From assembly GCA_041940305.1 (NCBI GenBank), contig JBGTSJ010000007.1, positions 1 through 64,000 of the forward strand: a stretch of DNA of 64,000 nt, written 5' to 3'. The position numbers were made by a program, and so were the translations under genes. Of this stretch, positions 7,745-59,586 are shown one piece after another. Within the stretch, counting starts at the first letter, position 1. Each line of letters opens with the position of its first letter. Source of the DNA: Planctomycetaceae bacterium. GTDB lineage: Bacteria > Planctomycetota > Planctomycetia > Planctomycetales > Planctomycetaceae. The notes beneath the pieces are model-generated. The model had not been told where the DNA came from, did no database searches, and saw only the letters and a program-made list of their open reading frames with translations.

Positions 7745-7825
7745 GGCCACGGATGACGCGGATTGGACGGATTCACGCAGATCAGATCCGCGTAAATCCG
7801 TCCAATCCGCGTCATCTGCGGCCCC
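7745..7825. repeat. Family-1 palindromic element, copy A, 81 bp
   Basis: GGCCACGGATGACGCGGATTGGACGGATT-CACGCAGATCAGATCCGCGTA-AATCCGTCCAATCCGCGTCATCTGCGGCCCC, a near-perfect hairpin about 30 bp long between yqiJ-like and flotillin. Confidence 0.9.
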
Positions 7826-7879
7826 TTTGAAACGAATCAGCCAATCCCATCTCACGAGTTCTGACTCGGGCTTGAAACC

Positions 7880-9964
7880 ATGGAATACATCGTCGGCGGT
7901 ATCATCGGTCTGTTCATCCTCTTCGGCCTGCTGATCCTGATCTCGCGGTTCTACCGCAAGGTCGGCCCGGAAGAGGCGCTGATCATTACCGGCGTCGGCG
8001 GACTGCGGGTCGCCACCGGGCGCGGGACGATCGTGATTCCGATCGCTCACCGCGCGGAGCAGATGGACCTGTCGGTCAAGCGGATCGAGATCGCCCGCCG
8101 CGGCGAGTCGGGACTGATCTGCCGCGACAACATCCGGGCCGATATCGAGGTCGCGTTCTTCGTCCGCGTGAACAACACGCGCGAGGACATTCTGCAGGTG
8201 GCTCAGTCACTGGGCTGCCGTCGGGCGAGCGAGCACCAGGCACTGGTCGAACTGTTCGACGCCAAGTTCTCCGAGGCCCTGAAGACCGTCGGCAAGCACT
8301 TCGATTTCGTCGACCTCTACACTGAGCGGGACAAGTTCAAGGACGAGATTCTCAAGCACATCGGGACAGACCTCAACGGCTACATTCTCGACGACTGCGC
8401 GATCGACTACCTCGAGCAGACGCCAGTCGAGAAGCTGAGCGCGAACAACATCCTCGACGCCGAGGGTATCAAGAAGATCACCGAGTTGACGGCCCGAGAG
8501 CACGTCCGCTCGAACGAGATCACGCGCGAAAAAGAGAAGACGATCAAGAAGCAGGACGTCGAGGCGCAGGAAGCGATCCTGGAGCTGGAGAAGCAGCGCG
8601 TCGAGGCGGTCGAGAAGCAGAAGCGGGAGATCGCGGAGATCACGGCCCGCCAGCACGCCGAGGCGGCCAAGGTGCAGCAGGAAGAGCGGCTCAAGTCGGA
8701 ACGGGCCCGCATCACGACCGAGGAAGAGGTGGAGGTCGCGACGCAGAACAAGGACCGCCAGGTCATTGTTGCACAGCGAAACAAGGAACGCACCGACGCC
8801 GTCGAGCGCGAACGCGTGGAGAAGGACCGGCAGCTCGAAGTGACCGAGCGCGAGCGGATCGTCGGCCTCGCCCAGATCGACAAGGAAAAGGCGATCGAAG
8901 TCGAGAAGCGGAACATCCAGGAGGTGATCCGCGAACGGGTGACCGTCGAACGGACGGTGGTCGAAGAACAGCAGAAGATCAAGGACACCGAGGAGTTCGC
9001 CACGGCGGACCGCGAGAAGCAGGTCAAGATCACGCTCGCCGAGATGGCGGCCCAGGAGTCGTTGGTCAAAGAGATCAAGGCAGCCGAGGCGGCCAAGCAG
9101 TCGGCCGAATTCGTGGCTCAGCAGATGGTGATCGAAGCCGAGGCGGAGCGGCAGGCGGCCGAGAAGCAGACTGCGGCCAAGAAAATGCTGGCCGAGGCTG
9201 TGCAGGCCGAGACCGCCGCCACCGGACTCGCCGAAGCGCAGGTGATCCTCGCAAAGGCCGATGCCACCGAGAAGCAGGGAACGGCCGAAGCGGTCGTCAT
9301 CCAGAAGAAGCTGGTTGCCGAAGCCGAAGGTCATAAGGCGAAGGCGGACGCCGTCCAGAAGCTGGGCCTGGCGGAAGCCGACGTCATGCACCAGAAGTTC
9401 TCCGCCGAAGCCCGCGGCATCGAGGAGAAGGCCGAAGCGATGAAGCTGTTCGACGGCGTGGGCCGCGAGCACGAAGAGTTCAAGCTGCGGCTGAACAAGG
9501 ACAAGGACATCGAGATTGCCGCGATCTCCGCGCAGGAAGAGATCGCCAAGAGCCAGGCGGACATCGTCGGCAAGGCGCTGCAGACGGCCCGCATCGACAT
9601 CGTCGGCGGCGAGACGGAGTTCTTCGACAAGATTGTCGACTCGGTCAAAGCCGGCAAGGCGGTCGACCGCTGGGTCTACAACAGCGACGTGTTGAGCGAC
9701 GTGAAGAACACGTTCTTCAACGGCGAGTCGAACGGCGACTTCCGCTCGAGCCTCAGAAAGTTCACGGACCACTTCGGGATGAGCTTCGAGGACGTGAAAG
9801 ACATGACCGTCACGGCCCTGCTGGCGAAGTTCATGCTGCAGGCCGACGACGACGCGACGACCAGCGCACTCAAACGACTGCAGCGCGTGGTGCAGTCAGC
9901 GGGAGTCAGCGACAAGAAGGTGGCGTCCCTGGGAATCGGGGCGGCGGAGCAGTCGCATGCTTGA
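7880..9964 (+). CDS. Flotillin / SPFH (band-7) family protein, YqiK-like
   Basis: 694 aa. N-terminal TM anchor MEYIVGGIIGLFILFGLLILISRFYRKVGPEEALIITG. An SPFH domain and a long E/A/K/Q-rich coiled-coil flotillin repeat region follow. Confidence 0.9.
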   Translation: MEYIVGGIIGLFILFGLLILISRFYRKVGPEEALIITGVGGLRVATGRGTIVIPIAHRAEQMDLSVKRIEIARRGESGLICRDNIRADIEVAFFVRVNNTREDILQVAQSLGCRRASEHQALVELFDAKFSEALKTVGKHFDFVDLYTERDKFKDEILKHIGTDLNGYILDDCAIDYLEQTPVEKLSANNILDAEGIKKITELTAREHVRSNEITREKEKTIKKQDVEAQEAILELEKQRVEAVEKQKREIAEITARQHAEAAKVQQEERLKSERARITTEEEVEVATQNKDRQVIVAQRNKERTDAVERERVEKDRQLEVTERERIVGLAQIDKEKAIEVEKRNIQEVIRERVTVERTVVEEQQKIKDTEEFATADREKQVKITLAEMAAQESLVKEIKAAEAAKQSAEFVAQQMVIEAEAERQAAEKQTAAKKMLAEAVQAETAATGLAEAQVILAKADATEKQGTAEAVVIQKKLVAEAEGHKAKADAVQKLGLAEADVMHQKFSAEARGIEEKAEAMKLFDGVGREHEEFKLRLNKDKDIEIAAISAQEEIAKSQADIVGKALQTARIDIVGGETEFFDKIVDSVKAGKAVDRWVYNSDVLSDVKNTFFNGESNGDFRSSLRKFTDHFGMSFEDVKDMTVTALLAKFMLQADDDATTSALKRLQRVVQSAGVSDKKVASLGIGAAEQSHA

Positions 9965-9972
9965 TCGAAAGA

Positions 9973-10056
9973 GGGGCCACTGATGACGCGGATCTGGCGG
10001 ATTCTCGCGGATAGAATCTGCGTAAATCCGCGTCATCCGTACCATCTGCGGCCCCC
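9973..10056. repeat. Family-1 palindromic element, copy B (left boundary of GxxExxY cassette 1)
   Basis: GGGGCCACTGATGACGCGGATCTGGCGGATTCTCGCGGAT...AATCTGCGTAAATCCGCGTCATCCGTACCATCTGCGGCCCCC. Confidence 0.9.
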
Positions 10057-10073
10057 TTTGACGGGAGACTCCT

Positions 10074-10496
10074 ATGCCCAGCGACAAGCTCCTCCACGCC
10101 GACCTCACCGACGCGATCATCAAGTCGTTCTATCACGTCTACAACACGCTCGGCTTCGGCTTCCTCGAAAAGGTCTACGAGAACTCGATGGCAATCTCGC
10201 TGAGAAACGCCGGCCTGTTCGTCGTGCCCCAGATGCCGGTGGAGGTGTACTTCGAGAAACTGCGGGTCGGCACCTACTGCGCGGACCTGCTGGTTTCGAA
10301 CCTGGTCATCGTCGAGATCAAATCCGTCGAGAACCTGCACCCCGCACACGAGGCTCAGCTGATCAACTACCTGAAAGCCACTGATATCGAAGTCGGCCTG
10401 CTGCTCAACTTTGGCGAGAAACCTGAGTTCCGGCGCAAGGTTTTCAGCAACGAACGCAAGCAGCACCGAGTCGTCCCCAAAGGAGACCACGGATGA
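10074..10496 (+). CDS. GxxExxY family protein (PD-(D/E)XK nuclease-like fold)
   Basis: The motif G-F-L-E-K-V-Y-E-N is present. It is a paralog of ORF 56988..57449 with a shared core: ...ADL(I/L)V...V(I/V)VE(I/L)KS(V/A)E...HEAQL(I/V)NYL(K/R)ATDIEVGLLLNFG.KP...RKVF(S/T)N. The last codons (...VPKGDHG*) are encoded inside the right-hand palindromic repeat. Confidence 0.78.
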   Translation: MPSDKLLHADLTDAIIKSFYHVYNTLGFGFLEKVYENSMAISLRNAGLFVVPQMPVEVYFEKLRVGTYCADLLVSNLVIVEIKSVENLHPAHEAQLINYLKATDIEVGLLLNFGEKPEFRRKVFSNERKQHRVVPKGDHG

Positions 10497-10564
10497 CGCA
10501 GATGACGCGGGTTCTCGCTGATCCGCGAAAATCCGCCAGATCCGCGCCATCCGCGGTCCCCCCT
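10486..10564. repeat. Family-1 palindromic element, copy C (right boundary of GxxExxY cassette 1)
   Basis: ACCACGGATGACGCAGATGACGCGGGTTCTCGCTGATCCGCGAAAATCCGCCAGATCCGCGCCATCCGCGGTCCCCCC. Confidence 0.9.
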
Positions 10565-10567
10565 TGA

Positions 10568-13500
10568 ATGCCCGATCCCACTCCCCAACCCGATGCCGCT
10601 CCGCAGCTGGAAGGCGGCACTTATGAGATCATCCGCAACCGGTTGCGGGGGTACGGGGAGGAGCTGCGCGCGCGACTGTCGCGGCTGAACGCGGCGCGGA
10701 AGGATGTCTTCGGGTCGATCGACGTCAAGCTGCTGGCGACCGAGCGGATCACGACGGAGCACAACTGTGTCCCGCGGGATATGGCGGCCGTCGGGGACCG
10801 GTTTCTGTTCGGGTACAACGTGCACTTCGGGCTGAAAACCGAGCGGCACATCGCCGACGTCTTCGCTGCATATGAGTTCCGGCGTCCCGGCGGTGAGAGC
10901 GGCGAAGCTTCTGCAGAGGCCCACGGGTTGCAGCCGGTAGGCTTCGATGTGCTGGGTCTCAACGACCCGCGGTTCGAGAAGGACCTGCAGGACGTTTACC
11001 GTTACTACAAGAACGCCACGTTCGCGCAGTTCGTGCATCGCGGGCCGCACCTGTTCATGGTGTTTCAGGTCGGCCGCTCGCCGCTGGACGTCAAAACGTT
11101 TAAATGGCTGCTGCGGCCCGAAGGCCTGCAGTATCTCGACAACCGCAGCGACCACGAGGTCCGCCCGCCGCCGCAGCACGAGTTTGAATGGATCCGCTGC
11201 ACGCGCGACATGCATCGGCAGGGAGTTCACCCGCACATCTCTATCGAAGACCGCCTGTTCGTGGAGACAGTCGGCGGCGACCTGACCATCAAGATCGAGA
11301 ACAATACCGACTCGGGGCAGGGGATCTACTCCGAACCGGTCGACAACGCCGACCAGACGCTCGACGACGCCGAGACCTATTACGCGATCGTCGGCAACCT
11401 GATCCTGCTGAAGATCAAGCCGTACCAGGAGGCGCGGTTCCGCTATATCGTCTACAGCGAAAAGATCGAGCAGGCCCGCCGGCTCGACGCCATTGAGCAG
11501 GCGTGCGTGCTGCTGCCCGATGATCACGGGCTCATCTTCTCCAGCGGCTACTTCCTGCAGTCGGGGGAGTACAAGACTTTTGACAGCGCTCATACCGGGC
11601 TGCTGTTTGAGCGGCGGATTGCCAGCCCCAACGGCGAGGACACGCTCTTTGTGTTCCATCAGCCGCAGTCGGGGGATTACGTGCTGCTCGGCTACAACAT
11701 GATCGAGCAGAAGGTCGAGACGCCGGTCGTGTGCAACGGCTTCACGCTGTTTCACGCCGGCGAGATGCTGCAGTTCAAGGTGCAGCCGGAGCCCCAGAAG
11801 CACCACGCCGTGCAGGTCTGGCAGACTCCCTACGTCGGTGAAAACTACGTGCCGCCGACGAACTCCGATTCCTACCTGTACAAGATCGGCAATCGCGACA
11901 TCGTCCGCGGCATGGCCGAATGCCAGGCGATTCTCAAGCTGATCGACAAAGAGGATTCGTACTCCGGCCTGTATGTCGATCTTGTCAAACTGACGACCGA
12001 CGTCCTCGACTCCTACTTCTGGATCGGACACGCGGGGGCCGAGAACCTGGCAGAGCCGCTGGCGCAGATCCGCGACGCCGCGCGATCGGCCGTGGATGAG
12101 TTCGAGAAGGTTGTCCGCGTCCGCAAGAACACTGCCGAACAGACGCAGCAGGTCCAGCAGAAGACGCGGGCTCTGCTGTCGGAAGTGCATCGCGCCCGGT
12201 TCGACGCGATCGACGGCTTCGTGAGATCACTCGCCGGCCTGCGGGGCATCCGCGGTGAGATCATCGGCCTGAAGGAATTGCGGTACGTCGATCTCCCGAC
12301 CGTCGAGGGTCTGGAACAGGAGGTCACTCAGGAGACGGAGCGGCTGTCGCATCGCTGCGTCGAGTTCCTGCTCAGGCCGGATGCACTGCAGCCCTACGCC
12401 GACAAGGTCGCCGATGAGCAGGCGGCGATCGAAGGCCTGCAGAAAGTCAGCGAAGCGAAAAAGCAGGCGGAGCGGATCGGCGCATCGGCGACCGAGCTGG
12501 AGATGCTGATCGAGATCGTCTCGAACCTGAAGATCGACGACGCCACGCAGCGAACCGCCATCATCGACGGCATCTCGGCGGTCTTCACCAAGGTCAACAC
12601 CGCGCGGGCTGCGCTCAAGCGGAAGATGCAGGAGCTGGCTTCGGTCGAAGGGGCGGCCGAGTTCGGCTCACAGCTCAAGCTGCTCAACCAGTCGGTCGTC
12701 AACTTCCTCGACGTCTGCGACGCCCCGCAGAAGTGCGAAGAGTACCTCACCAAGCTGATGGTGCAGGTCGAGGAACTCGAGGGGAAGTTCGCCGAATTCG
12801 ACGAATTCGTGGTCCAGCTCGCCGAGAAGCGGGACGAAATCTACAACGCGTTCGAGACCCGACGGCTGCAGCTGGTCGAAGCCCGCAACAAGCGGGCCGG
12901 CGCCCTTGCGTCCGCGGCCGACCGCATCCTCAAGGGGATCAAGTCCCGCGTCGACGGGCTCGAATCGGTCAACGACATCCACGGCTACTTCGCCGGGGAC
13001 CTGATGATCGAAAAGGTCCGCGACATCGTGCGGCAGCTGGACGGCCTCGGCGACAGCGTCAAGGTGGACGACATCCAGTCGCGGCTGAAGACGATCCGCG
13101 AAGACGCCGTCCGCCAGCTCAAGGACAAGCAGGAGCTGTACGAAGATGGCGAGAACGTTATCAAGTTCGGCAAGCACCGCTTCTCAGTGAATACACAGGT
13201 GCTGGACCTCACCACCGTTCAGCGCGACGGCGACCTCTGCCTGCACCTTACCGGCACCGACTTCTACGAGCCGCTCAACAATCCCGAGATCGACGCCCTC
13301 GATGACGTCCGTGACATGGAAGTCGTCAGCGAGAACCGGGACGTGTACCGCGCCGAGTACCTGGCGTACCAAATCCTGAGCACGGCCCGCACTAACGACG
13401 AGAGCCCGTTTATCCGCGACCCGAAGGGGAGCGCGGCCCCGCGCGATCTCGATTCCCTCACGGCCGAAGTCCAGCGCTTCATGGCCCCGCGCTACAGCGA

Positions 13501-16204
13501 AGGCTACACGAAGGGGGTCCACGACCACGATGCCGCCCTTCTGTTGCAGGCATTGCTCGAGATCGACGCGACCTGCGGCCTGCTCCGCTACTCGTCGCTG
13601 GCCCGCGCCGTCGCCCGCCTGTTCTGGGAGTACTTTGCCGACAAGCGGGTCAAAACCCTGATGGGGGCGCGCCTCGCGGGCTTCGGCGCCGTCGCACAGG
13701 CCTTCCCCGGGACCACGCAGCAGGCCGAGTACATCGAAGAGCTGCAGGAAATGCTCGCCGCGTTTTTGGCGGAAGTCGATCTCTTTGGTAGCCCGTCGCG
13801 TCAGCAAGGGCCGAGTACTCCACCCGACGCCGACTCCAAATCCCCCTCGCTTGCGCGTCGGGCTAGCGTTGACGACGCCCTCGCCGGCGAAGCCGCTGAG
13901 TACCTGTTCTACGAGCTGACCACCGGCGACACGTTCGCTGTCAGCCAGGCGGCCGCCGACCTGGTCCGCGAGTTCAAGGAACACCTCCACGTCCACGGCC
14001 GGAGTGAGCGGTTCACCGAGTCGCTGCACTCGCTGCAGAAAGCCACCGCGCCGGCCTTTGAACTCATCCGGGACTGGGTACGCGCGTATGTCGACTCCCG
14101 GAGCGCGACCCACGATTACGTCGACGAAGCGTCCGTTTGTCTCCTCGCCGGTTCCATCGACGAGCGGCGCATCGTCGCCGCAGAGACCGATCGGGAGATC
14201 AACGGCCTGGCCGGCACGCATCCGGCCATCGCGGGAGGCCGTTACTCACTGAACTTCAACCGCTTCCTGCACAAGCTGGCCGCGTTCGAACGGGACGTGG
14301 TGCCGCGATTTCAGCGTTATCACCATCTCAAGACCGAGATCGTGGACGACGCCCGCAGCGAGATGAAGCTGAACGAGTTCAAGCCGCGGGTGTTGACGTC
14401 CTTCGTCCGCAACAGGCTGATCGACACCACTTATCTTCCCCTGATTGGCGACAACCTTGCCAAGCAGGTCGGCACCGCCGGCGAGCAAAAGCGGACCGAC
14501 CGGCAGGGCCTGCTGCTGCTCATCTCCCCCCCCGGCTACGGCAAGACGACGCTGATGGAGTACGTCGCCAACCGGCTGGGGATCATATTCATGAAGATCA
14601 ACGGCCCGGCCCTCGGCCACGAGGTGAAGTCGCTCGACCCGCAGGCCGCTCCCAATGCCGGCGCCCGTGAGGAGGTCGAAAAGCTCAGCCTTGCGTTCGA
14701 GATGGGGGACAACGTGATGATCTATCTGGATGACATTCAGCACTGTCATCCGGAGTTCCTGCAGAAGTTCATCTCGCTCTGCGACGCCCAGCGGAAGGTC
14801 GAAGGCGTCTACAAGGGGCACACCCGCACGTACGACTTCCGCGGCAAGAAGGTCTGCGTGGTGATGGCGGGGAACCCGTACACCGAGAGCGGCGAGAAGT
14901 TCAAGATCCCCGACATGCTCGCCAACCGGGCCGACATCTATAACCTTGGCGAGATCATCGGCGACAGCGGGGCCGCATTCGAGATGAGCTATCTCGAGAA
15001 CGCCCTCACGTCGAATCCCGTACTCGCCCGTCTCGCGTCCCGCAGCCGCGGCGACGTGCAGGCCGTCATCCAGATGGCCGAACGTGCCCGCACCCGGGCC
15101 GACGGCTCCGCCGTCAGCGCCCCCGAGAACCTGGCGGCGCTCACCGAGGGCATCGACCTCGAAGGGACGTACCCGCTCGACGAACTCGGCGAGTACGTCA
15201 ACACGATGATCAAGCTGCTTCGCGTGCGCGACGTCGTACTGACGATGAACAAGGAGTACATCAAGTCGGCCGCCACGCACGACGACTATCGCACCGAGCC
15301 GCCGTTCCTGCTGCAGGGCTCCTACCGCAACATGAACCGCATCGCCGAGAAGGTGCTGCCGGTTATGAACGTGCAGGAACTGGAGACGCTCATCGTCTCC
15401 AGCTACCAGAACGACGCGCAGACCCTTACCAGCGGCACGGAGTGGAACCTGCTCAAATTCAAGGAGCTGCTGGGCAAGCTGACCCCTCAGGAACAGGAGC
15501 GCTGCGAAGACATCCGCCGCACGTTTCGGCAAAACGTCAAGCTACGCGGCGTCGGCGCCGACGACAAGGTCGGCCTCGTCATCGCTCAGCTCTCGACGTT
15601 TGCGGACGGCCTAGACTCCATCCGCAAGGCCGTGACCACCGGTGTCGGCCAGCTTACCGACCGCAACGGCCACGACGACCACATCGCCGCCGCCGTCAAT
15701 AAGATCGAAGCGCTCAATACAGGGCTTACGTCACTCTCGGAACGGATCAACGATGGCCTGGCCCAGATCGCGCGTCTCGCCGATCGGCCCATTGAAATCG
15801 ACGTGCCGCCCATCGACGTTAAGTGGCCCGAAACGCTGCCCGCCGCACTCTCTGACCGATCAGCGGGCGGACAAAGTGCCCCCGCTGTCACACAGGCCGC
15901 ACCGGCCGAGAACAGGCCGATTGTCCGCGACGCGACCGACGCCGACGACGACCAGGGCGACGACTCCTCTCGACCCGACCGCATCACCGTCGTCAACCGC
16001 CTCCCGCGATCGGTTCTCAACGTGATGGAGCAGCAGTTCCAGCTCATGAACGGCTGGATGAAACCGGTCCTGGAGCTGACCGCCCAGCAGCGAACCGAAA
16101 TGGCCGAACTGCGGCCGATGATCGAGGAATGCCTCCGCCATTACCGCTCTCTCCTCCGCAAACTCGAAGAAGCCCACGACCGCGACGCGCCCTCCCAGGC
16201 CTAA
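10568..16204 (+). CDS. Giant 1878-aa protein with a single MoxR/dynein-related AAA+ (AAA_5-like) module; function unknown
   Basis: Walker A LLLISPPGYGKTTLMEYVANRLG at about aa 1295. Walker B plus the MoxR-like segment VMIYLDDIQHCHPEFLQKFISLCDAQRKVEGVYKGHTRTYDFRGKKVCVVMAGNPYT parallels MoxR's LLLADEINRATPKTQSALLETMQEGTVT...PFFVMATQNP. An Arg finger is in IPDMLANRADIYNLGE. An N-terminal region of about 1290 aa and a C-terminal region of about 450 aa have long coiled-coil stretches and no catalytic motif I can recognise. Confidence 0.85.
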   Translation: MPDPTPQPDAAPQLEGGTYEIIRNRLRGYGEELRARLSRLNAARKDVFGSIDVKLLATERITTEHNCVPRDMAAVGDRFLFGYNVHFGLKTERHIADVFAAYEFRRPGGESGEASAEAHGLQPVGFDVLGLNDPRFEKDLQDVYRYYKNATFAQFVHRGPHLFMVFQVGRSPLDVKTFKWLLRPEGLQYLDNRSDHEVRPPPQHEFEWIRCTRDMHRQGVHPHISIEDRLFVETVGGDLTIKIENNTDSGQGIYSEPVDNADQTLDDAETYYAIVGNLILLKIKPYQEARFRYIVYSEKIEQARRLDAIEQACVLLPDDHGLIFSSGYFLQSGEYKTFDSAHTGLLFERRIASPNGEDTLFVFHQPQSGDYVLLGYNMIEQKVETPVVCNGFTLFHAGEMLQFKVQPEPQKHHAVQVWQTPYVGENYVPPTNSDSYLYKIGNRDIVRGMAECQAILKLIDKEDSYSGLYVDLVKLTTDVLDSYFWIGHAGAENLAEPLAQIRDAARSAVDEFEKVVRVRKNTAEQTQQVQQKTRALLSEVHRARFDAIDGFVRSLAGLRGIRGEIIGLKELRYVDLPTVEGLEQEVTQETERLSHRCVEFLLRPDALQPYADKVADEQAAIEGLQKVSEAKKQAERIGASATELEMLIEIVSNLKIDDATQRTAIIDGISAVFTKVNTARAALKRKMQELASVEGAAEFGSQLKLLNQSVVNFLDVCDAPQKCEEYLTKLMVQVEELEGKFAEFDEFVVQLAEKRDEIYNAFETRRLQLVEARNKRAGALASAADRILKGIKSRVDGLESVNDIHGYFAGDLMIEKVRDIVRQLDGLGDSVKVDDIQSRLKTIREDAVRQLKDKQELYEDGENVIKFGKHRFSVNTQVLDLTTVQRDGDLCLHLTGTDFYEPLNNPEIDALDDVRDMEVVSENRDVYRAEYLAYQILSTARTNDESPFIRDPKGSAAPRDLDSLTAEVQRFMAPRYSEGYTKGVHDHDAALLLQALLEIDATCGLLRYSSLARAVARLFWEYFADKRVKTLMGARLAGFGAVAQAFPGTTQQAEYIEELQEMLAAFLAEVDLFGSPSRQQGPSTPPDADSKSPSLARRASVDDALAGEAAEYLFYELTTGDTFAVSQAAADLVREFKEHLHVHGRSERFTESLHSLQKATAPAFELIRDWVRAYVDSRSATHDYVDEASVCLLAGSIDERRIVAAETDREINGLAGTHPAIAGGRYSLNFNRFLHKLAAFERDVVPRFQRYHHLKTEIVDDARSEMKLNEFKPRVLTSFVRNRLIDTTYLPLIGDNLAKQVGTAGEQKRTDRQGLLLLISPPGYGKTTLMEYVANRLGIIFMKINGPALGHEVKSLDPQAAPNAGAREEVEKLSLAFEMGDNVMIYLDDIQHCHPEFLQKFISLCDAQRKVEGVYKGHTRTYDFRGKKVCVVMAGNPYTESGEKFKIPDMLANRADIYNLGEIIGDSGAAFEMSYLENALTSNPVLARLASRSRGDVQAVIQMAERARTRADGSAVSAPENLAALTEGIDLEGTYPLDELGEYVNTMIKLLRVRDVVLTMNKEYIKSAATHDDYRTEPPFLLQGSYRNMNRIAEKVLPVMNVQELETLIVSSYQNDAQTLTSGTEWNLLKFKELLGKLTPQEQERCEDIRRTFRQNVKLRGVGADDKVGLVIAQLSTFADGLDSIRKAVTTGVGQLTDRNGHDDHIAAAVNKIEALNTGLTSLSERINDGLAQIARLADRPIEIDVPPIDVKWPETLPAALSDRSAGGQSAPAVTQAAPAENRPIVRDATDADDDQGDDSSRPDRITVVNRLPRSVLNVMEQQFQLMNGWMKPVLELTAQQRTEMAELRPMIEECLRHYRSLLRKLEEAHDRDAPSQA

Positions 16205-16340
16205 GGGGGCCGCGGATCAGCGCGGATCGCTAAGCCAAGCTGTAAGTCCAGCCGTGTTGACAACACCTGAGCTGCAAATCGAGGAGGGACCTGGCGGCGC
16301 CCGGAATCCGCGCGAATCCGCCCATTCCGCGTCATCCGCG
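16205..16340. repeat. Family-1 palindromic element, copy D, 136 bp with a roughly 65-bp non-palindromic core
   Basis: Arms GGGGGCCGCGGATCAGCGCGGATCGC and GGAATCCGCGCGAATCCGCCCATTCCGCGTCATCCGCGGCCCCCCC. It lies between the giant ATPase stop and the GGDEF gene. Confidence 0.9.
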
Positions 16341-17168
16341 GCCCCCCTTTCCCGCCCCGTGTGGCTCCTGCTCGTCATCGAAGCCGCACTCGTCACGGCT
16401 TGCACCGCCCTCCTGGGCACACTGGCCGGTCTCCCTCTCGTTGCCGTCGCGCTCTGCGCCCCGCAGATCGTCGCCGCCGCCTGGATCGCCGGGACCCGCC
16501 CCGCACTGGTGCTGACGTTCGGCTCCGCATGCGGCTGGTATCTTCCGGCCATTTCGTACCGGGGAGTTGACCACGCGGCCGTCGATCTGCCATCAGCCGT
16601 GATCGGCACCGCGGTCCTCATCGCCTTCACGCTGCTGGTCCAGAAGTGGAAGGAGTCCATCCGCCGCGCCCATGAAGCGGCCGAAACGGACCCACTGACC
16701 GGTCTGCTCAATCGCCGCGGCTTCCTGGCGCGCGTCGAAGCCGAACGCAATCGCAGTCAGCGGAGCGGTGCACCGCTCGCCGTCGCCTTCCTCGACTGCG
16801 ACCGCTTCAAGGAGCTCAACGACACCCGCGGCCATCAGACGGGAGACCGCCTGCTGATCGCGACCAGCGAAGTGCTGCGGGCGAACGTCCGCAACTACGA
16901 CAGCGTGGCCCGGCTCGGAGGCGACGAATTCGCCGTGCTCTTGCCGGATGTCGAAGAGGCCGGCGCCTGTGCCGCCTCCGACCGTCTGCTCACGGCGCTG
17001 CACGCGGAGATGACCCGGCAAGGATGGCCCGTCACCTTCAGTATCGGCGTCGCCGTCTTCGCGAGGCCGCAGGCGACGACCGAGATGATCGCCGCGGCCG
17101 ACGCCGCGATGTACGAAATCAAACGCTCCGGCCGAGCCGCCGTCCGGGTCACCGTCATCAATAGCTGA
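16254..17168 (+). CDS. Membrane-anchored GGDEF-domain diguanylate cyclase; the real start is probably GTG near 16361
   Basis: 2-3 TM helices (WLLLVIEAALVTACTALLGTLAGLPLVAVALCA...) are followed by a GGDEF domain with DPLTGLLNRRGF, the active-site RLGGDEFAVLL and the I-site-like LLIATSEV. The first 35 codons of the ORF are a translation of palindromic repeat 16205-16340. Confidence 0.82.
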   Translation: MLTTPELQIEEGPGGARNPRESAHSASSAAPLSRPVWLLLVIEAALVTACTALLGTLAGLPLVAVALCAPQIVAAAWIAGTRPALVLTFGSACGWYLPAISYRGVDHAAVDLPSAVIGTAVLIAFTLLVQKWKESIRRAHEAAETDPLTGLLNRRGFLARVEAERNRSQRSGAPLAVAFLDCDRFKELNDTRGHQTGDRLLIATSEVLRANVRNYDSVARLGGDEFAVLLPDVEEAGACAASDRLLTALHAEMTRQGWPVTFSIGVAVFARPQATTEMIAAADAAMYEIKRSGRAAVRVTVINS

Positions 17169-25119: not shown

Positions 25120-26430
<1,311 letters not shown>

Positions 26431-26431
26431 T

Positions 26432-26467
26432 CAGAAACCCGGTTTCTCCGAAGAAACCGGGTTTCTG
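26432..26467. promoter_or_regulatory. Tandem 15-bp palindromes (putative TetR operator) in the divergent eno/tetR intergenic region
   Basis: CAGAAACCCGGTTTCT-CCGA-AGAAACCGGGTTTCTG. Each half is self-complementary around a CCCGG/CCGGG core, and the two halves form a perfect 16-bp inverted repeat. It lies about 185 bp upstream of the tetR start. Confidence 0.5.
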
Positions 26468-26652
26468 CAGCGTGGTTTGTGAGTTTCGCCGGCCGATTTG
26501 TAGCGGAGAACGCCCCCGCTGCCAACTGCGGGTCCGCTCTACAACCGGGAAGCAAGGAGGCACCCCTTCGAAGTTTTGGTGCAGCAACGCTGAGTTTCGG
26601 ACAGACCATTGATTTCCTGAAACCGGCTCAATTCCGCGTGAGTATTACTCAC

Positions 26653-27243
26653 ATGAAATCAGTGCGACGTTACCAGCAGTCAGCTAGAGCGGAGTCCGCT
26701 GCAGCGACCGGGGCTCGTATCGTCGAGGCGTTCCTCATGCGACTCAACGAGCAATGGTACGACGAGATCACACTGGATCAGGTCGCCATAGACGCCTCCG
26801 TAACGGTGCAGACCATCGTGCGGCGTTTTGGAGGCAAAGCCGGGCTGCTCGGCGAGGCAATTCGAGAAATGATTCGCCGCGCCGGGGAACGTCGTGCCGC
26901 TCCGCCGGGCGACCTGAATCAACTCGTCCGAAATCTGGTTGCCGACTATGAGGGGACCGGTGACACGATCATCCGATTACTTGCCGTTGAAGGACGGAAC
27001 GCGGTGCTTCACGAATTCCTCACGCATGCACGCGGCCGGCATCGTGACTGGATCGCGAAGGCGTTTGCAGATGATTTGGAACTGCTCGATGCGGCAGCGC
27101 GGCAGGCAACTCTTGACTCGCTGGTCGTCGCCACCGACGTCTACACATGGAAGCTGCTGCGCCGCGACATGGGTCGCTCCGTGGGTGCGGCTCGGGCTGC
27201 AATCAGCGGGATGATCCGCTCGACACTCGCCGCCTCGAAATAG
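26653..27243 (+). CDS. TetR/AcrR family transcriptional regulator
   Basis: N-terminal HTH ITLDQVAIDASVTVQTIVRRFGGKAGLL, about 196 aa. The annotated ORF start at 26422 reads through the operator palindrome and is rejected. Confidence 0.82.
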   Translation: MKSVRRYQQSARAESAAATGARIVEAFLMRLNEQWYDEITLDQVAIDASVTVQTIVRRFGGKAGLLGEAIREMIRRAGERRAAPPGDLNQLVRNLVADYEGTGDTIIRLLAVEGRNAVLHEFLTHARGRHRDWIAKAFADDLELLDAAARQATLDSLVVATDVYTWKLLRRDMGRSVGAARAAISGMIRSTLAASK

Positions 27244-27265
27244 TTGCTGCAGGGAACGCGCCTGA

Positions 27266-34863: not shown

Positions 34864-35094
34864 GGGGGTACGCAGATGACGCAGATGCAGAGGATTGACG
34901 CAGATGCTGCGCAGGTCTTGAAGGACGGCAGAAACACTAATAGCCGCTAATCTACGCTAATTCCTGCATGAGTGTCGATTAGCGGTGATTAGCGTTCCCC
35001 TCTTCGCTTTTTTTTCCATCCCGTCGTTCGCTGTCCGCCGTCACCTCTTGAAATCCGCGTCAATCCGCCCCATCCGCGTCATCCGCGGCCCCCC
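34864..35094. repeat. Family-1 palindromic element, copy E, 231 bp, with nested internal inverted repeats
   Basis: Arms GGGGGTACGCAGATGACGCAGATGCAGAGGATTGACGCAGATGC and GAAATCCGCGTCAATCCGCCCCATCCGCGTCATCCGCGGCCCCCC. The core carries CCGCTAATC...GATTAGCGG inverted repeats. It overlaps the last 11 codons of the PVC dehydrogenase gene. Confidence 0.9.
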
Positions 35095-38548: not shown

Positions 38549-38644
38549 CCGTCCCCTCCCAACACGTTTAGCCGCGACTCGAAGAGCGCGCCCCCCTCTA
38601 AGGTACCTCCAACACGTTAAACAAGGTCCCCACAATCCCCTCCC

Positions 38645-45924: not shown

Positions 45925-45965
45925 GGGCCGCGGATGACGCGGATCGGGGGGATTGACGCAGATCT
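45925..45965. repeat. Family-1 half-copy F (left arm only)
   Basis: GGGGCCGCGGATGACGCGGATCGGGGGGATTGACGCAGATC, located directly after the stop of the coiled-coil gene. No recognisable right arm is present. Confidence 0.8.
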
Positions 45966-49752: not shown

Positions 49753-51666
49753 TTGCGGTCCGGCCGACGGGACCCTATGACGACCGCGCTCTGGCAACTG
49801 ACGGAGGTTACTCTCCGGGGACGGGACCGTCCCCGACTGGACGGGATCTCTGTCGAGATTCCGCGCGGCGTCTGCGCCGTGATGGGACACTCCGGCGCCG
49901 GCAAGACGTCGCTGCTCAATCTGCTGGTAGGGTTTGAGCGGGCGGATGCCGGGAGAATCGTCCGCGTGAACGGGAACGGCGGGGGGACGGAGAGAGGGGG
50001 AGATGGAGAGAACGATTCGAAGTCTCCCCCTCTCTCCATCGCCCCGTCTCTCTCGCCTCCCTCACTCGCCGTCTACTGGGTGCCGGCTGATGACGGGCTG
50101 TGGCCGCATCTGACTGTGCGACGGCATCTCGCGGCGGTGACCGAAGATGAAATTCGGATTGCGAACCTGCTGCGCGATTTCGATCTGGGTGAACTCGCCG
50201 CTGCGCGGCCGGCGACGCTGTCCGAAGGAGAGCGGTCGCGGCTCTCGGTCGCGCGGGCGCTGGCGACGGGAGCACGCGTGCTGGTGATGGACGAGCCGCT
50301 GGTGCACGTGGATCCGATGAGGATGGGCAAGTACTGGGACGCGGTACGGCAGCACTGCGGGAAGAGCGGCACCTCGCTGGTGTTTGCGTCGCATCATCCA
50401 GAAACGGTGCTGCGCGAGGCGGAGCGAGTGATCTGTCTCGATCGTGGACGTATCGCCTGGCAGGGGGCCGTCCGCGAACTGTATGAGCAGCCGCCCACGC
50501 CGGAACTGGCGATGTTCCTCGGTCCGGTCAACTGGCTGGAGGCGGGGGAGGCCGCGGAGTGGCTGCAGCAGGCACGCCCGGGCCCGCTGGCGTTACGGCC
50601 GGAGCGGCTGCGGATCGAAGCGGTCGGGGAGAGCCCGATCGTCGTCGAGGAGACGCGGTTCAGCGGGGCGTATGCCGAGGTGGATCTCAGGAACGAGCGG
50701 ACGGGCAGTCGGCGACGGATGGTGCATCGTCCGGTCGCCGGAGCCTTGCGACGCGGGATGCGTGTGGCACTCGGCGCGACGCTGGGGCTGTTGCTGGCCG
50801 TCAGCGCGGGCTGCACCGTGCAGAGCGCCGAAGCGAAGCTGCCGGTGAAGCCGGTGCGGGTCGAGTCGCTGCCGGTGGAGGACGGGTTCCTGCCGGCGCC
50901 GCGGTCGATGGACATCGGACCGGACGGGCAGCTGTACGTGCTGGACGACGCCGGCCGCGTCATCATCTATGCGGCGGACGGATCGCTCGTGCGGACATGG
51001 TGGATGCCGGAGTACTCGGTCGGCCGCCCGGAGGGGATCGAAGTCCTGCAGGACGGGCGGCTGGCGATCGCCGATACCCATTACCACCGCGTGCTCATCT
51101 GCGACCAGGAGGGGACAGTACTGCAGATGTGGGGTGAAGAGGGGGAGGAGCCGGGGCAGTTCATCTTCCCGTGCGACGTGGCACAGGACCCTGAGGGGAA
51201 CCTGTACGTCTCCGAGTACGGCGGAAACGACCGCGTGCAAAAGTTCACGATCGAGGGGGAGTTCCTGCTGGAGTTCGGCGAACCCGGGACCGGGCCGGGG
51301 CAGTTCCAGCGGGCCAGCGGACTCGACTGGCATGACGGCACGGTCTACGTCGCGGACGCGATCAATAACCGCGTGCAGGCGTTCTCGGCTGAGGGGAAGC
51401 GGCAGCCGTGGGGCGGGGAGCAGCCGCCGGAACTCGATTATCCGTATGATCTGCGGATCCTTCCCAATGAGAGGATGCTGGTCGTCGAATACAAGTCGGG
51501 ACGGGTGACACTGCTGACGCTGGATGGCACAGTGCTGGGCCGCTACGGCAGTACGGGCCGCGGCGAGGGAGAATTCTGGACGCCGTGGGGGCTGGCCGCG
51601 ACCGAGGAGGGACGGCTGGTTGTCGCGGATACGGGGAATCGCAGGATCGTGGAGCTCGCCCTGTGA
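49753..51666 (+). CDS. ABC transporter ATP-binding protein (FbpC-like, with a TOBE-like C-domain) read in-frame into an NHL-repeat beta-propeller lipoprotein-like domain
   Basis: Walker A GHSGAGKTSLLNLL. Signature LSEGERSRLSVARAL. Walker B VLVMDEP. At about aa 336 an internal lipoprotein signal MRVALGATLGLLLAVSAGC is followed by NHL/YD-like repeats (YVSEYGGNDRVQKF, VYVADAINNRVQAF, LVVADTGNRRIVEL). There is no stop between the two parts. Confidence 0.75.
   Translation: MRSGRRDPMTTALWQLTEVTLRGRDRPRLDGISVEIPRGVCAVMGHSGAGKTSLLNLLVGFERADAGRIVRVNGNGGGTERGGDGENDSKSPPLSIAPSLSPPSLAVYWVPADDGLWPHLTVRRHLAAVTEDEIRIANLLRDFDLGELAAARPATLSEGERSRLSVARALATGARVLVMDEPLVHVDPMRMGKYWDAVRQHCGKSGTSLVFASHHPETVLREAERVICLDRGRIAWQGAVRELYEQPPTPELAMFLGPVNWLEAGEAAEWLQQARPGPLALRPERLRIEAVGESPIVVEETRFSGAYAEVDLRNERTGSRRRMVHRPVAGALRRGMRVALGATLGLLLAVSAGCTVQSAEAKLPVKPVRVESLPVEDGFLPAPRSMDIGPDGQLYVLDDAGRVIIYAADGSLVRTWWMPEYSVGRPEGIEVLQDGRLAIADTHYHRVLICDQEGTVLQMWGEEGEEPGQFIFPCDVAQDPEGNLYVSEYGGNDRVQKFTIEGEFLLEFGEPGTGPGQFQRASGLDWHDGTVYVADAINNRVQAFSAEGKRQPWGGEQPPELDYPYDLRILPNERMLVVEYKSGRVTLLTLDGTVLGRYGSTGRGEGEFWTPWGLAATEEGRLVVADTGNRRIVELAL
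49988..50068. repeat. Family-2-related palindrome P3, in-frame inside the ABC ATPase domain
   Basis: GGAGAGAGGGGGAGA-(18 bp)-TCTCCCCCTCTCTCC, a perfect 15-bp stem, plus a CT-rich tail. It encodes an atypical insertion GGGTERGGDGENDSKSPPLSIAPSLSPPS between the Walker A strand and the Q-loop. Confidence 0.75.
50758..51666 (+). CDS. Alternative model: NHL-repeat lipoprotein translated separately from the internal ATG 50758
   Basis: The lipobox LLLAVSAGC lies directly after this ATG. Five or six NHL-type repeats follow. Confidence 0.45.
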   Translation: MRVALGATLGLLLAVSAGCTVQSAEAKLPVKPVRVESLPVEDGFLPAPRSMDIGPDGQLYVLDDAGRVIIYAADGSLVRTWWMPEYSVGRPEGIEVLQDGRLAIADTHYHRVLICDQEGTVLQMWGEEGEEPGQFIFPCDVAQDPEGNLYVSEYGGNDRVQKFTIEGEFLLEFGEPGTGPGQFQRASGLDWHDGTVYVADAINNRVQAFSAEGKRQPWGGEQPPELDYPYDLRILPNERMLVVEYKSGRVTLLTLDGTVLGRYGSTGRGEGEFWTPWGLAATEEGRLVVADTGNRRIVELAL

Positions 51667-54752: not shown

Positions 54753-54763
54753 GGTCGGAGGGC

Positions 54764-54898
54764 AGAGGTCAGAGGTCAGAGGTCAGAGGTCAGAGGTCAG
54801 AGGTCAGAGGTCAGAGGTCAGAGGTCAGAGGTCAGAGAGCAGAGAGCAGAGAGCAGAGAGCAGAGAGCAGAGAGCAGAGAGCAGAGAGCAGAGAGCAG
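54764..54898. repeat. Heptanucleotide microsatellite: (AGAGGTC)x~10 followed by (AGAGAGC)x~9
   Basis: A perfect tandem tract of 135 bp lies between the stop of the vWA membrane-protein gene (54752) and moxR (54992). Confidence 0.95.
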
Positions 54899-54991
54899 AA
54901 CGCCGCTAACGCGGCGTGAATGCCGGGCCTAATACAGGAACGCAATTCGCAACACGCGTACCACCGATAACCGATTAGCCAATTACCCACC

Positions 54992-56005: not shown

Positions 56006-56062
56006 TCAATTCGCCAACTACCGCACGATTTCAAGACTCGATCTCACCGGCACGCGACATTC

Positions 56063-56956: not shown

Positions 56957-57489
56957 GGGATAACGGGACGCAGTTGAACGCAGATGAATGGGGATTTCCG
57001 CAGATCAGGAAAGGAAGAGTGGGGCAATGGTGGGCGAGACCGATGATCTGCACTCGGAAGTGACCGGTGAAGTTATTGGCGCGTTCTACCATGTCTACAA
57101 TGCACTCGGTGAATCGGTATATCAGAATGCACTTATGTTGACGTTGCGCAAGCGAGGGTGTCTGGTGGAGGTGCGACAGGCTGTCGATGCGCGGTTTGAA
57201 GGCGTCATTGTTGGAGAATACTTCGCAGACCTGATCGTGAACGGGGTGGTGATCGTCGAGCTGAAGTCAGCGGAGACGTTGTGCGACGCTCATGAGGCGC
57301 AACTCGTGAACTATTTGCGTGCCACCGATATTGAGGTCGGGCTGCTACTGAACTTTGGACCCAAACCGCAGGTCAAACGCAAAGTTTTCACGAACGCACG
57401 AAAGCGCCGTGATTTGGCACCCTCGCCATCAGACTTGCTGCCCTCCTGATCTGCGACAATCCAGTTGATCTGCGTCCATCTGCGTTCCC
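56957..57489 (+). mobile_element. Second repeat-bounded GxxExxY cassette, inserted between the DUF58 and batA-like genes of the MoxR operon
   Basis: Left arm GGGACGCAGTTGAACGCAGATGAATGGGGATTTCCGCAGATC at 56957-57007. Right arm GATCTGCGACAATCCAGTTGATCTGCGTCCATCTGCGTTCCC at 57448-57489. These are imperfect inverted repeats and a divergent version of family-1 arms. Confidence 0.5.
56988..57449 (+). CDS. GxxExxY family protein (PD-(D/E)XK-like), paralog of 10074..10496
   Basis: It shares a core with the other paralog: ADLIVNGVVIVELKSAETLCDAHEAQLVNYLRATDIEVGLLLNFGPKPQVKRKVFTNARK. The probable start is the internal MVGETDD... at 57027. Confidence 0.75.
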   Translation: MGISADQERKSGAMVGETDDLHSEVTGEVIGAFYHVYNALGESVYQNALMLTLRKRGCLVEVRQAVDARFEGVIVGEYFADLIVNGVVIVELKSAETLCDAHEAQLVNYLRATDIEVGLLLNFGPKPQVKRKVFTNARKRRDLAPSPSDLLPS

Positions 57490-57509
57490 TCTTCCGATCG
57501 ACGATCATC

Positions 57510-59426
57510 ATGTCCTGGTTGCCTGGGTTTTCGGCGTTGTGGGGGGCGTGGCTGTTTTTGCTGCTGATCCCGCTGCTGATTTTTTACTTTCTGAAGCTGA
57601 AGCGGCCGCGGCTGGAGATTGCTTCGCTGGCGCTGTGGCGGCAGGTGATCAGCGATCAGCGGGTGAATTCGCCGTTCCAGAAGTTCAAGAGGAACCTGCT
57701 GCTGCTGCTGCAGATCATCATCCTCACGCTCATCGCGCTGGCGGCGATGCAGCCGTTCATCCGGGGGGAAGCGGCGCGGTCGGAGTATCTGCCGATCCTG
57801 ATCGACACTTCCGCGAGCATGGCGGCGATCGACGAGGAGACCGGCCAATCGCGGCTGGACCTCGCCAAGGAAGAAGTCCGCGAGATTATCGAGGGGATGC
57901 TTCCCGGCCAGCAGATCACGCTGATCGCGGTGGGCTCCACGGTCCGGCGTCCGACGGAGTTCACGGACAACAAGCCGCTGCTGCTGTCGGCCCTCGACGG
58001 CATCGAGGCGTCGGACGTGCCGAGCCGGTTCGAGGACGGGCTGCAGGTGGCACAGGCGCTCACGCGGACGTTCGCGATCGACAAGGTGCGGCTGTATTCG
58101 GACGGGAACCTGCCGACGCGTCCGACCCCCACCGGTCAGCACGTGGCGGCGGTGGACTTCGACCTTTCGTACCAGCTCGAGTTCTTCCAGCTGCCGCCGG
58201 CGGGGCGGAATATGGGGATCACGGCGCTCAATGCCCGGCGGCGGTCGGTGGATGAATGGCAGATCTTCGTGCGGGTCGAGGCGGCGGAGGCGGCGTCCGT
58301 GACGGGGCAGGTCGAGCTGCTGCTGAACGGGCAGCCGCTGGGTGCACCGGAACCGGTCGTGCTCGACCCATCGGAGTCACAGCGGCTGGAGTTCGCCGTG
58401 AGTGCGCGGGAGGCGGCCTTCCTGGAAGCGCGGCTGAAGGTGGACGGCCACGATTCGCTCGAGTCGGACAACGTCGCGTTTCTGGAGCTGCCGGTCGGTC
58501 GCGAACTACTGGTGTACTGCGCGACGAGCCTGGCGACGTACCGGCATTCGCTGTCGGGGCTGGAAGGGCTGATCATGGAACCGAGCCCGCAGGGGGAGGA
58601 AAGCCTGTCTTCGTACGATCTGGTCATTACGGACACGCTGGACGATCTGTCGAAGGACTCGACGACCTACTTCTTCGTGGGGGTCATTCCGGCTGATTTA
58701 AGAGAATTGATCACCGTGCAGACCGATCTGGCCGAAGTGGTGGACTGGAAGCGCGACGCACCGTTGCTGCAGCACGTGCAGCTCAAGGAAGTGCAGATCT
58801 CCGATCTGCCGAAGCGGCAACCGGACGTGGAAGACGGAGACTTTGAGGAACTCGGTTACGAACTGCTGGCGTTCGGCAACGAGGGGCCGTTGATTGTCCG
58901 AAAACGGGACGGCCGCAAGCTGCTGTATTACTTCCTGTTCCACACGGACCGGTCCACCCTGCCCTATCGCGTCGGCTTTCCGATCCTGGTCCAGAACGTG
59001 GTGAACGAGGCGCTGCAGCAGGCATCGCTGTCGGAACTGAGCGCGATGACGACCGGGATCCTGCCCCCGCTGCGTGTCGAGGGAAACTCCACTTACCGCG
59101 TGACGACGCCCAGCGGCGAGTCGATCGAGGCCACGACGGGGGAGAACGGCCTGCTGGAGGGGATCCCGGCGGGCAAAGTCGGCGAATACGAAGTGCGGCA
59201 GGGAGGGAATGTGGTCCGGCGATTCGGCGTCGGGCTCCTCAATTCGACCGAGTCGTCGCTGGTGGGGGTGGACGAAATTCAGTTCCGCGAGATCAAGGTG
59301 GCCGCCGAGGAGGAACGGCTCAAAACCGACAAGCCGCTGTGGACGACGCTGGCCATCGTGGCGTTCAGCGTGTTGATGATCGAGTGGTGGTATTTTCAGA
59401 AGAAACCCGCCGGGATGCCGAACTGA
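57510..59426 (+). CDS. BatA-like protein: N-terminal double-TM anchor plus a vWA domain
   Basis: MSWLPGFSALWGAWLFLLLIPLLIFYFLKLKRP...LLLLLQIIILTLIALAAMQPF (two TM helices). vWA motif LPILIDTSASMAA. A C-terminal TM helix. An upstream TTG at 57465 is the alternative start. Confidence 0.78.
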   Translation: MSWLPGFSALWGAWLFLLLIPLLIFYFLKLKRPRLEIASLALWRQVISDQRVNSPFQKFKRNLLLLLQIIILTLIALAAMQPFIRGEAARSEYLPILIDTSASMAAIDEETGQSRLDLAKEEVREIIEGMLPGQQITLIAVGSTVRRPTEFTDNKPLLLSALDGIEASDVPSRFEDGLQVAQALTRTFAIDKVRLYSDGNLPTRPTPTGQHVAAVDFDLSYQLEFFQLPPAGRNMGITALNARRRSVDEWQIFVRVEAAEAASVTGQVELLLNGQPLGAPEPVVLDPSESQRLEFAVSAREAAFLEARLKVDGHDSLESDNVAFLELPVGRELLVYCATSLATYRHSLSGLEGLIMEPSPQGEESLSSYDLVITDTLDDLSKDSTTYFFVGVIPADLRELITVQTDLAEVVDWKRDAPLLQHVQLKEVQISDLPKRQPDVEDGDFEELGYELLAFGNEGPLIVRKRDGRKLLYYFLFHTDRSTLPYRVGFPILVQNVVNEALQQASLSELSAMTTGILPPLRVEGNSTYRVTTPSGESIEATTGENGLLEGIPAGKVGEYEVRQGGNVVRRFGVGLLNSTESSLVGVDEIQFREIKVAAEEERLKTDKPLWTTLAIVAFSVLMIEWWYFQKKPAGMPN

Positions 59427-59446
59427 GGCGTAGGTCAGGGAAACAA

Positions 59447-59586
59447 GGCCGCGGATGACGCGGATCCGGCTGGTCTTCGCGGAGAACAAGAACGTCATGG
59501 ACCAGCGGTAATCGGCCGGCCACAAATCTCACCCCTGTCTGGATTCTGATCCGCGGAAATCCGCCTGATCCGCGTCATCCGCGGCC
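59447..59586. repeat. Family-1 palindromic element, copy H, 140 bp
   Basis: GGCCGCGGATGACGCGGATCCGGCTGGTCTTCGCGGAGAAC...GATTCTGATCCGCGGAAATCCGCCTGATCCGCGTCATCCGCGGCC. It lies between the batA-like stop and the next gene. Confidence 0.9.

Follow-up and report, generated by a model that had tools for sequence, protein, structure and literature searches.

The 64,000-nucleotide (nt) stretch of planctomycete DNA analysed here, referred to below as the window (positions 1 to 64,000 of contig JBGTSJ010000007.1 in the Planctomycetaceae bacterium assembly GCA_041940305.1), carries long imperfect palindromes at eight loci, named A to H, together with two genes, g1 and g2, that each encode a 140-amino-acid (aa) nuclease of the GxxExxY family. 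The hairpin family formed by these palindromes is now tied to a gene family spanning many phyla. Each palindrome was confirmed by inspection of the sequence at the coordinates in Table 1, which differ by a few bases from those of a preliminary description of this DNA, and the motif GATGACGCGGAT, searched with at most one mismatch, has 14 matches in the window as against 0.99 expected, a count that none of 100 shuffles attained. The nine loci of the preliminary description become eight, unless the two arms of G are counted apart, and its view that there is a hairpin at every locus holds for A to E and H, F being a left arm only and G two arms around a gene. Likewise, B and C, which it listed as single copies, are indeed complete hairpins, but it missed that together they bracket g1. 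The window contains G and B-g1-C, which bear genes, A, D, E and H, which are gene-less and stand alone, the hairpins B and C, and the half copy F; a search of D, E and H found no remnant of a GxxExxY gene between their arms.

Table 1. Palindromic elements and GxxExxY genes of the window
Feature	Position	Strand	Description	Setting
Sister-type palindrome (family 2)	3489-3649		ACAGGAGGA / ACGGAGGGA / ACAGAGGAG arm units; ~100-nt centre, no gene	
Sister-type palindrome, second copy	6777-6931		Family 2 units; ~100-nt centre, no gene	
Element A	7742-7826		Gene-less hairpin, 4 units per arm, centre 1-2 nt; left arm ACGGAT GAC GCGGAT TGG ACGGAT TCAC GCAGAT, right arm its mirror	Junction of a 205-aa membrane-protein gene and the flotillin gene
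Element B	9973-10056		Complete hairpin	8 nt past the flotillin stop codon, 17 nt ahead of the g1 start
g1	10074-10496	+	140-aa GxxExxY / PD-(D/E)XK nuclease gene	Hairpins B and C on either side
Element C	10486-10564		Complete hairpin	Overlaps the g1 stop codon; ends 3 nt ahead of the DUF3686 ATPase start
Element D	16205-16345		Gene-less; 2 left and 4 right units; unique centre of ~80 nt	
Element E	34861-35097		Gene-less; 147-nt centre	Between two minus-strand genes
Element F	45925-45965		Solo left arm, 4 units, without right arm	Directly past a stop codon
Element G, left arm	56957-57007		GGGAC-type end, GCAGAT units	Directly past the DUF58 stop codon
g2	57027-57449	+	140-aa GxxExxY nuclease gene	Between the two G arms
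Element G, right arm	57448-57495		ATCTGC units, GTTCCC end	15 nt ahead of the BatA start
Element H	59440-59593		Gene-less, 66-nt centre	Between the BatA gene and a 712-aa gene

The location at gene boundaries, reported before, can be made more precise, since every copy from A to H lies where two co-directional genes meet, either 0-20 nt past a stop codon or overlapping one. The distance past the stop codon is 0-1 nt for D (which directly follows the DUF3686 gene), F and G, 8 nt for B and about 13-20 nt for A and H; the stop codon of g1 falls in the left arm of C, and that of the minus-strand gene 35060-38635 is supplied by the right arm of E. As single strands, these sequences fold far better than their shuffled versions, most of all A (-67.6 kcal/mol, z -13.3), followed by B (z -7.0), H (-6.6), C (-6.0), the inner hairpin of E (-4.0) and D (-3.9).

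The arms, rightly described as conserved, are not generic palindromic sequence but periodic arrays of three to four hexamer units (RCRGAT, that is GCGGAT, GCAGAT or ACGGAT), spaced 9, 9 and 10 nt behind a short terminal sequence with a GGCC- or TAGAAC-type end, the opposite arm mirroring the array. The ends of the elements are symmetric (GGGGCC...GGCCCC or TAGAAC...GTTCTA). Over 346 arms collected, the consensus is AATAG(R)AC-RCRGAT-GAC-RCRGAT-NNN-RCRGAT-TNNC-RCRGAT, with the 9-9-10 phasing as the dominant pattern (123 arms). Unit core and phasing are conserved across phyla and across GC contents of 27-64%, and the spacers are variable. Element G, in which 440 nt separate the arms and accommodate a gene, belongs to a diverged subfamily (GGGAC-GCAGAT units). 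At the non-core positions, the arms of one element match each other at 56% as against 38.5% for arms of different elements, hence complementarity outside the units is only partly maintained.

The proteins encoded by g1 and g2, which are 54% identical, are on sequence grounds members of the GxxExxY / PF13366 family, both being above the curated cut-offs for TIGR04256 (128.8 bits for g1 and 106.3 bits for g2, cut-off 35; E 1.2e-30 for g2) and PF13366, or PDDEXK_3 (133.7 and 112.5 bits, cut-off 22; E 1.9e-32 for g2). The PD-(D/E)XK fold of the GxxExxY protein is confident, its D...E-x-K residues are invariant, and the protein is strongly conserved, with 60-70% identity across phyla. The family is also large, with matches (E <= 1e-3) in 27,084 cluster representatives at 50% identity, and in a cataloguing review the function of PF13366 is listed as unknown (PMC3424549). 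Searches with the GxxExxY protein returned no match in the Protein Data Bank (PDB) by sequence or in PHROGs, and PADLOC gave only sub-threshold, weak Cas4-like matches and no defence family above noise; g1 and g2 have no match to a transposase Pfam family. Some members (P0361-P0365 and others) reach 250-270 aa because they contain two successive GxxExxY domains, and could represent either fused neighbouring elements or read-through in gene calling.

The motif is not confined to the window, a caveat that the preliminary description had raised. A scan of species-representative genomes with GGCCNCNGATGACGCGGAT yielded at least 112 loci, and among the matches listed, about half fall by chance within the coding DNA of GC-rich taxa; the remaining ones are true elements with the identical four-unit arm design, found in Blastocatellia, other Acidobacteriota, Pyrinomonadaceae, Anaerolineales, Chlorobiota, Sumerlaeia, Geobacter, Verrucomicrobiota, a metagenome-assembled genome (MAG) of Firmicutes and others. 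Two GxxExxY genes appear among these listed loci, in Geobacter (L032, 56% identity to g1) and in Sumerlaeia (L111, 46%), and each lies exactly between a left and a right arm.

The association between arrays and GxxExxY genes extends to a metagenomic set made up of the best 80 protein matches retrieved with an alignment of four GxxExxY proteins. In these 80 loci (GC 27-63%), arrays flank nearly every GxxExxY gene: 46 of the 72 genes with sufficient flanking sequence have at least three units upstream and at least three mirror units downstream, as against 0 of 478 random windows of the same loci, and seemingly armless genes carry variant units (e.g. ACGGAA/ACGGAG or TCTGCG). The layouts seen most often are arm-gene-arm, in about 38 of 79 cases, and hairpin-gene-hairpin, like that of B-g1-C, in at least 10. 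Over all loci, the distance from a left array to the next right array is bimodal, with 63 intervals below 100 nt and 47 of 300-700 nt; a GxxExxY gene lies inside 44 of the latter, none holds any other cargo, and the remaining three pairs are spurious. The suspicion that the arms are simply the end segment of a paralogous gene family is therefore right insofar as they are standard flanks of GxxExxY genes, but they occur without the gene too. The enclosed genes are oriented as their upstream neighbour in 40 of 45 cases and as their downstream neighbour in 41 of 44, and gene-less hairpins lie between tandem (18), convergent (5) or divergent (3) gene pairs. Clusters of several arms or hairpins in tandem within 300-400 nt also occur, in an arrangement reminiscent of bacterial interspersed mosaic elements (BIMEs), at positions 2743-3124 of a Chlorobiota MAG locus (L046) and 3406-3676 of another locus (L123). 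That these patterns merely reflect chance similarity or low-complexity sequence, for which only the high GC of the window could be invoked, is practically inconceivable, considering that the motif count, the array test and the fold z-scores are all far above shuffled or random controls.

More distant family members show the same principle with different units. No GxxExxY gene was found in the phage collection and only eight were found in plasmid records, mostly megaplasmids, and no obvious vehicle for horizontal transfer came to light; the megaplasmid members, which are distant (31-45% identity to g1), mostly have periodic inverted arrays of other units. In Sphingomonas parapaucimobilis (megaplasmid locus L219, 350-778), a sense GxxExxY gene flanked by inverted arrays of CGCGAAG units lies between fabD and fabG, which is an insertion inside a core operon for fatty-acid synthesis. 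Distant genes in Bacteroides finegoldii (L213) and Bernardetia (L220) are flanked by CACAGAGGA units. Two palindromes in the window itself (family 2 in Table 1) have units of this CACAGAGGA-like type, and family 2 on that account probably belongs to the same superfamily, as a sister type without a gene. A distant gene in Prevotella nigrescens (L221, 200-850) has repeats alongside that are direct rather than inverted, both flanks showing ACAAATC-type units together with one copy of CTCGGCG.AGCCGACTG.

Orthologous junctions in relatives reveal presence/absence polymorphism at the A, G and H sites, a comparison that the preliminary description had proposed. At the A junction, where the 205-aa gene meets the flotillin gene, Symmachiella dynata (L217) is empty, its genes being 3 nt apart, another relative (L216) carries the full arm-GxxExxY-arm element, and the hairpin stands alone in the window and its 94% relative (L215). 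The element-specific second spacer, TGG/CCA, is common to the L216 arms and to A in the window, indicating that the two copies stem from one insertion. The next junction, between the flotillin and DUF3686 genes (9964-10568 in the window), is a hot spot for small accessory genes. It is occupied by B-g1-C in the window, by a hairpin plus a Zeta_toxin/AAA_33-like gene (5812-6393) in L216, and by such a gene (5618-6214) plus a solo right arm just ahead of the DUF3686 start in L215, the product of this gene being ~195 aa in both relatives. In the Bat operon, three relatives (L196-L198, BatA identity 71-87%) have element G, and Planctomicrobium sp. SH664 (L199) has an empty site. L197 and L198 carry a frameshift in the G gene, which is intact in L196 and the window. 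The four orthologous G copies have kept their GCAGAT units and changed their spacers. By analogy, the passage from intact to frameshifted gene resembles a decay cycle of the homing-endonuclease type. At the H site, finally, the window has its element, L197 has one at another offset, and L198, L200 and L201 have none.

These patterns, together with protein conservation, bear on the idea that the elements serve their host. In that case GxxExxY would be a housekeeping or defence nuclease, the arrays would be its operator or loading sites, and gene-less arrays would be chromosomal binding sites (e.g. for organisation, repair or self-marking). Copies that are old and stable in place, the conservation of arm units at orthologous sites in spite of a dead local gene, a protein that is 60-70% identical across phyla and the weak, sub-threshold Cas4-like similarity would all suit such a role. 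It sits badly, however, with the patchy presence/absence between close relatives, the pseudogenes, the many divergent paralogues in one genome, the insertions in unrelated operons (e.g. between fabD and fabG) and the lack of a defence-family match above noise, which makes it rather improbable in our eyes.

How the elements insert was approached by looking for target-site duplications. None were found, the lengths of flanking direct repeats equalling those of the shuffled control for 110 elements, which rules out insertion of the DDE type. A DDE-type miniature inverted-repeat transposable element (MITE) was accordingly rejected, the partner element also having no recognised transposase. The genes annotated in ~20 neighbourhoods of related loci include no transposase or integrase, and specifically no gene for a repetitive extragenic palindrome (REP)-associated tyrosine transposase (RAYT, an HUH Y1 enzyme), a search that did not extend to the open reading frames (ORFs) of the window or to the rest of the source genome. 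The possibility that a transposase encoded elsewhere mobilises these repeats in trans, as in REP/RAYT-type systems, with GxxExxY as a passenger or a gene that prefers hairpins, draws on their being palindromic, intergenic, devoid of target-site duplications and sometimes clustered in tandem (L046 and L123), much as REP/BIME and IS200/IS605 ends are (PMC3733652). It is nevertheless the least credible of the biological alternatives considered, for the ~45-nt arms of phased units lack an unpaired GTAG or CGTC tag, the annotation shows neither a Y1 nor any other transposase next to related loci, GxxExxY is the only gene that is recurrently enclosed, and the type of unit shifts with the protein subfamily.

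Another set of tests concerned RNA. In 37 simple arm-gene-arm elements oriented by their gene, there are 41 G·U pairs in the sense and 46 in the antisense direction, and folding energy is equal on both strands; the absence of bias on either count means that there is no sign of selection on the RNA of the transcribed strand, which points to a constraint at the DNA level rather than the RNA level. A terminator scan of positions 7000-17000 found no terminator-like site matching a whole element, the tails of the elements are CCCCUUUGA-like with only 2-3 U, and an intrinsic terminator was rejected for want of a U-tract behind the stem. At gathering score, Rfam 15 matches nothing in the window and, across 20 related loci, nothing but a tRNA, which agrees with the earlier remark that no named element could be recognised.

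These results have to be set against a role in RNA, of the kind proposed for REPs or for the RNase III sites between phage T7 genes. Transcribed hairpins might be signals for mRNA processing, stability or insulation, and a stem between the left and right arms might release or protect the GxxExxY mRNA. The very stable folds, the position inside operons directly past stop codons and in sense orientation, and the better complementarity at non-core positions within than between elements are what one would hope to see. However, conservation is that of a sequence unit with fixed phasing and not of covarying pairs, and neither a G·U excess on the transcribed strand, nor a difference in energy between strands, nor a U-tract or terminator-like signal, nor an Rfam match was found. 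We thus consider an RNA-level role unlikely, if the most plausible of the alternatives.

The reading that we favour, although we would give it no better than an even chance, is that the palindromes are the terminal repeat arrays of a nuclease-only selfish element, of which the short copies are MITE-like derivatives. Three forms would then be distinguished, (i) a complete one, consisting of a left array of three to four RCRGAT units, a promoter-less ~130-aa GxxExxY gene and the mirror array, (ii) a gene-less one with MITE-like behaviour, in which the two arrays would abut or surround less than 100 nt of unique DNA, and (iii) a composite one, in which the gene would lie between two whole hairpins, as in B-g1-C. 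The gene-less palindromes may be MITE-like derivatives of GxxExxY elements or, equally, their homing sites, and the hairpin-gene-hairpin forms are presumably composites. Owing to its sense orientation between co-directional operon genes, just past a stop codon, the nuclease is probably expressed by read-through transcription. At both ends, several of its subunits might then bind duplex DNA through the phased units and cut at or near the element. The cut would drive either copying of the gene into gene-less palindromes, in a homing-like manner, or movement of the whole unit, two routes that would both leave no target-site duplication. Later, the gene would decay or be lost and the hairpins remain. 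What was observed is the architecture, the statistical association of arrays with genes, the bimodal cargo pattern, the filled, empty and decayed states at orthologous sites, the sense orientation in operons and the lack of an RNA-type strand bias; recognition of the units by the GxxExxY nuclease, and the power of the latter to drive insertion or homing, are what we infer.

Several observations weigh against a selfish element of this kind. The ~130-aa protein has no separate DNA-binding domain. Signs of recent copy-and-paste are missing: an identical GxxExxY protein occurring on 16 contigs is always in one context, the two paralogues in the source genome are merely 54% identical, and gene-less copies differ at their spacers, which suggests that they are old or derive from many masters. 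The lack of target-site duplications counts here as well. With ~45 nt and ~70-80% identity, the arms are poor substrates for RecA-driven homing between loci. At the G site, the arm units are conserved even beside a dead gene (L197 and L198), which could be due to action in trans or to another function. Furthermore, the related loci are a biased sample, since they come from the top 80 protein matches and from the motif scan with its at least 112 loci.

Should a nuclease-only selfish element nevertheless be the right explanation, it might represent a so far unrecognised class of mobile DNA, found in at least 10 phyla, which a minimal PD-(D/E)XK nuclease alone would move, without a DDE, HUH, tyrosine or serine recombinase, by recognising phased 9-10-nt inverted units. 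This would explain the function of the GxxExxY family, with subfamilies matched to RCRGAT, CACAGAGGA and CGCGAAG units. We put this forward tentatively, as a proposal with the odds somewhat against it. A literature search by family names, accessions, motif sequence and REP/Planctomycetes found no account of these palindromes or of a link with GxxExxY, and the element family is apparently undescribed.

The implications are nonetheless several. The phased inverted arrays are a concrete and testable candidate for the substrate of the GxxExxY nuclease, and an explanation is offered for a class of long intergenic palindromes that annotation pipelines pass over. Should the nuclease indeed mobilise the palindromes or home into them, the mechanism of DNA mobility would be both new and minimal, and a source of small nucleases with varied sequence specificities would be at hand. 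Since the elements are inside housekeeping operons (flotillin, Bat, fab), they may alter how these operons are expressed, and they make it harder to assemble genomes and to align orthologues.

Other palindromes in the window deserve mention. The centre of E contains a nested hairpin (34933-34996, z -4.0) with GCTAAT units at a 10-nt period, as if a third type of unit had been inserted in the middle of a GCGGAT-type palindrome; in the fetched loci, GCTAAT-unit arrays have merely two incidental matches. A purine-rich palindrome at 49970-50072, with 42-nt arms (GGACGGAGAGAGGGGGAGATGGAGAGA and its mirror) that contain ACGGAG-like units, is upstream of or in the start of ORF 49753-51666. Two nested pairs of inverted repeats (37764-38164; 24-30-nt arms, 233-341 nt apart) lie in the 1191-aa minus-strand ORF 35060-38635. 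A perfect palindrome with 16-nt arms (CAGAAACCCGGTTTCT/AGAAACCGGGTTTCTG), at 26432-26467 between ORFs 25120-26388 (-) and 26422-27243 (+), is unrelated to the unit-array families.

Comparison with known systems helps to place these elements. The preliminary description had called them REP/BIME- or MITE-like, and they are indeed dispersed and intergenic, with gene-less copies that behave like MITEs, but they depart from REP/BIME in size, stem and tag. REPs are 20-40 nt long, with an 8-9 bp stem, an unpaired GTAG or CGTC tag and an HUH Y1 (RAYT) partner (PMC3733652), whereas the present elements are 80-230 nt long, have ~45-nt arms with units spaced 9, 9 and 10 nt, and have a PD-(D/E)XK nuclease as partner. 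The tag is absent, the ends being symmetric and the GACG in GATGACGC paired and internal, and a REP/BIME identity was rejected. The likeness is that REP/BIME sequences with their RAYT are also palindromic, extragenic, mostly 3' of genes, sometimes clustered and without target-site duplications, and that the repeat-flanked gene is, by analogy with the REPtron, a candidate mobiliser (PMC3733652).

The ends of IS200/IS605 elements and the attC sites of integrons are likewise imperfect hairpins whose cores are conserved and whose centres vary, and they adjoin small, promoter-less, co-oriented genes. They differ in that no Y1 transposase or IntI integrase is present in the annotated neighbourhoods here and that the elements are scattered in operons rather than arrayed. 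The attC cores are R''/R' = RYYYAAC / GTTRRRY; an integron cassette was rejected as the GTTRRRY core is absent (the ends being of GTTCTA or GGCC type) and the elements occur singly in operons. Intervening sequences of 23S rRNA with an ORF, of the Leptospira/Coxiella type, resemble the elements in that a small ORF lies within inverted repeats able to form a long stem in the host transcript. This candidate was rejected too, for there are no conserved rRNA motifs in the window or in 221 loci and the cargo belongs to a different protein family.

The likeness to MITEs and the autonomous transposons with terminal inverted repeats (TIRs) is more extensive. Both have inverted terminal arrays with repeated subterminal units that look like binding sites. 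As with MITEs, (i) gene-less copies share their ends with gene-bearing copies, (ii) at one orthologous site, the full element of a given lineage corresponds to a hairpin alone in a different lineage, (iii) two hairpins may surround a gene as a composite and (iv) copies are intergenic and variably present between relatives. Unlike MITEs, these elements have no target-site duplications, the sole protein is a ~130-aa PD-(D/E)XK nuclease instead of a DDE, HUH or recombinase transposase, and the copies are old and divergent, with no recent burst. Homing endonucleases with a PD-(D/E)XK fold exist (I-Ssp6803I), and homing-endonuclease genes share with the present elements a small nuclease gene in the middle of a symmetric site, the absence of target-site duplications and cycles such as those at the A site (empty, full or hairpin) and the G site (intact, pseudogene or empty). 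Here, in contrast, the gene is outside introns and inteins, what would be its site is a dispersed repeat, copies share short and imperfect homology, and cleavage of the palindrome is putative. All in all, the elements are, in their working, most like MITE/TIR families or homing-endonuclease genes.

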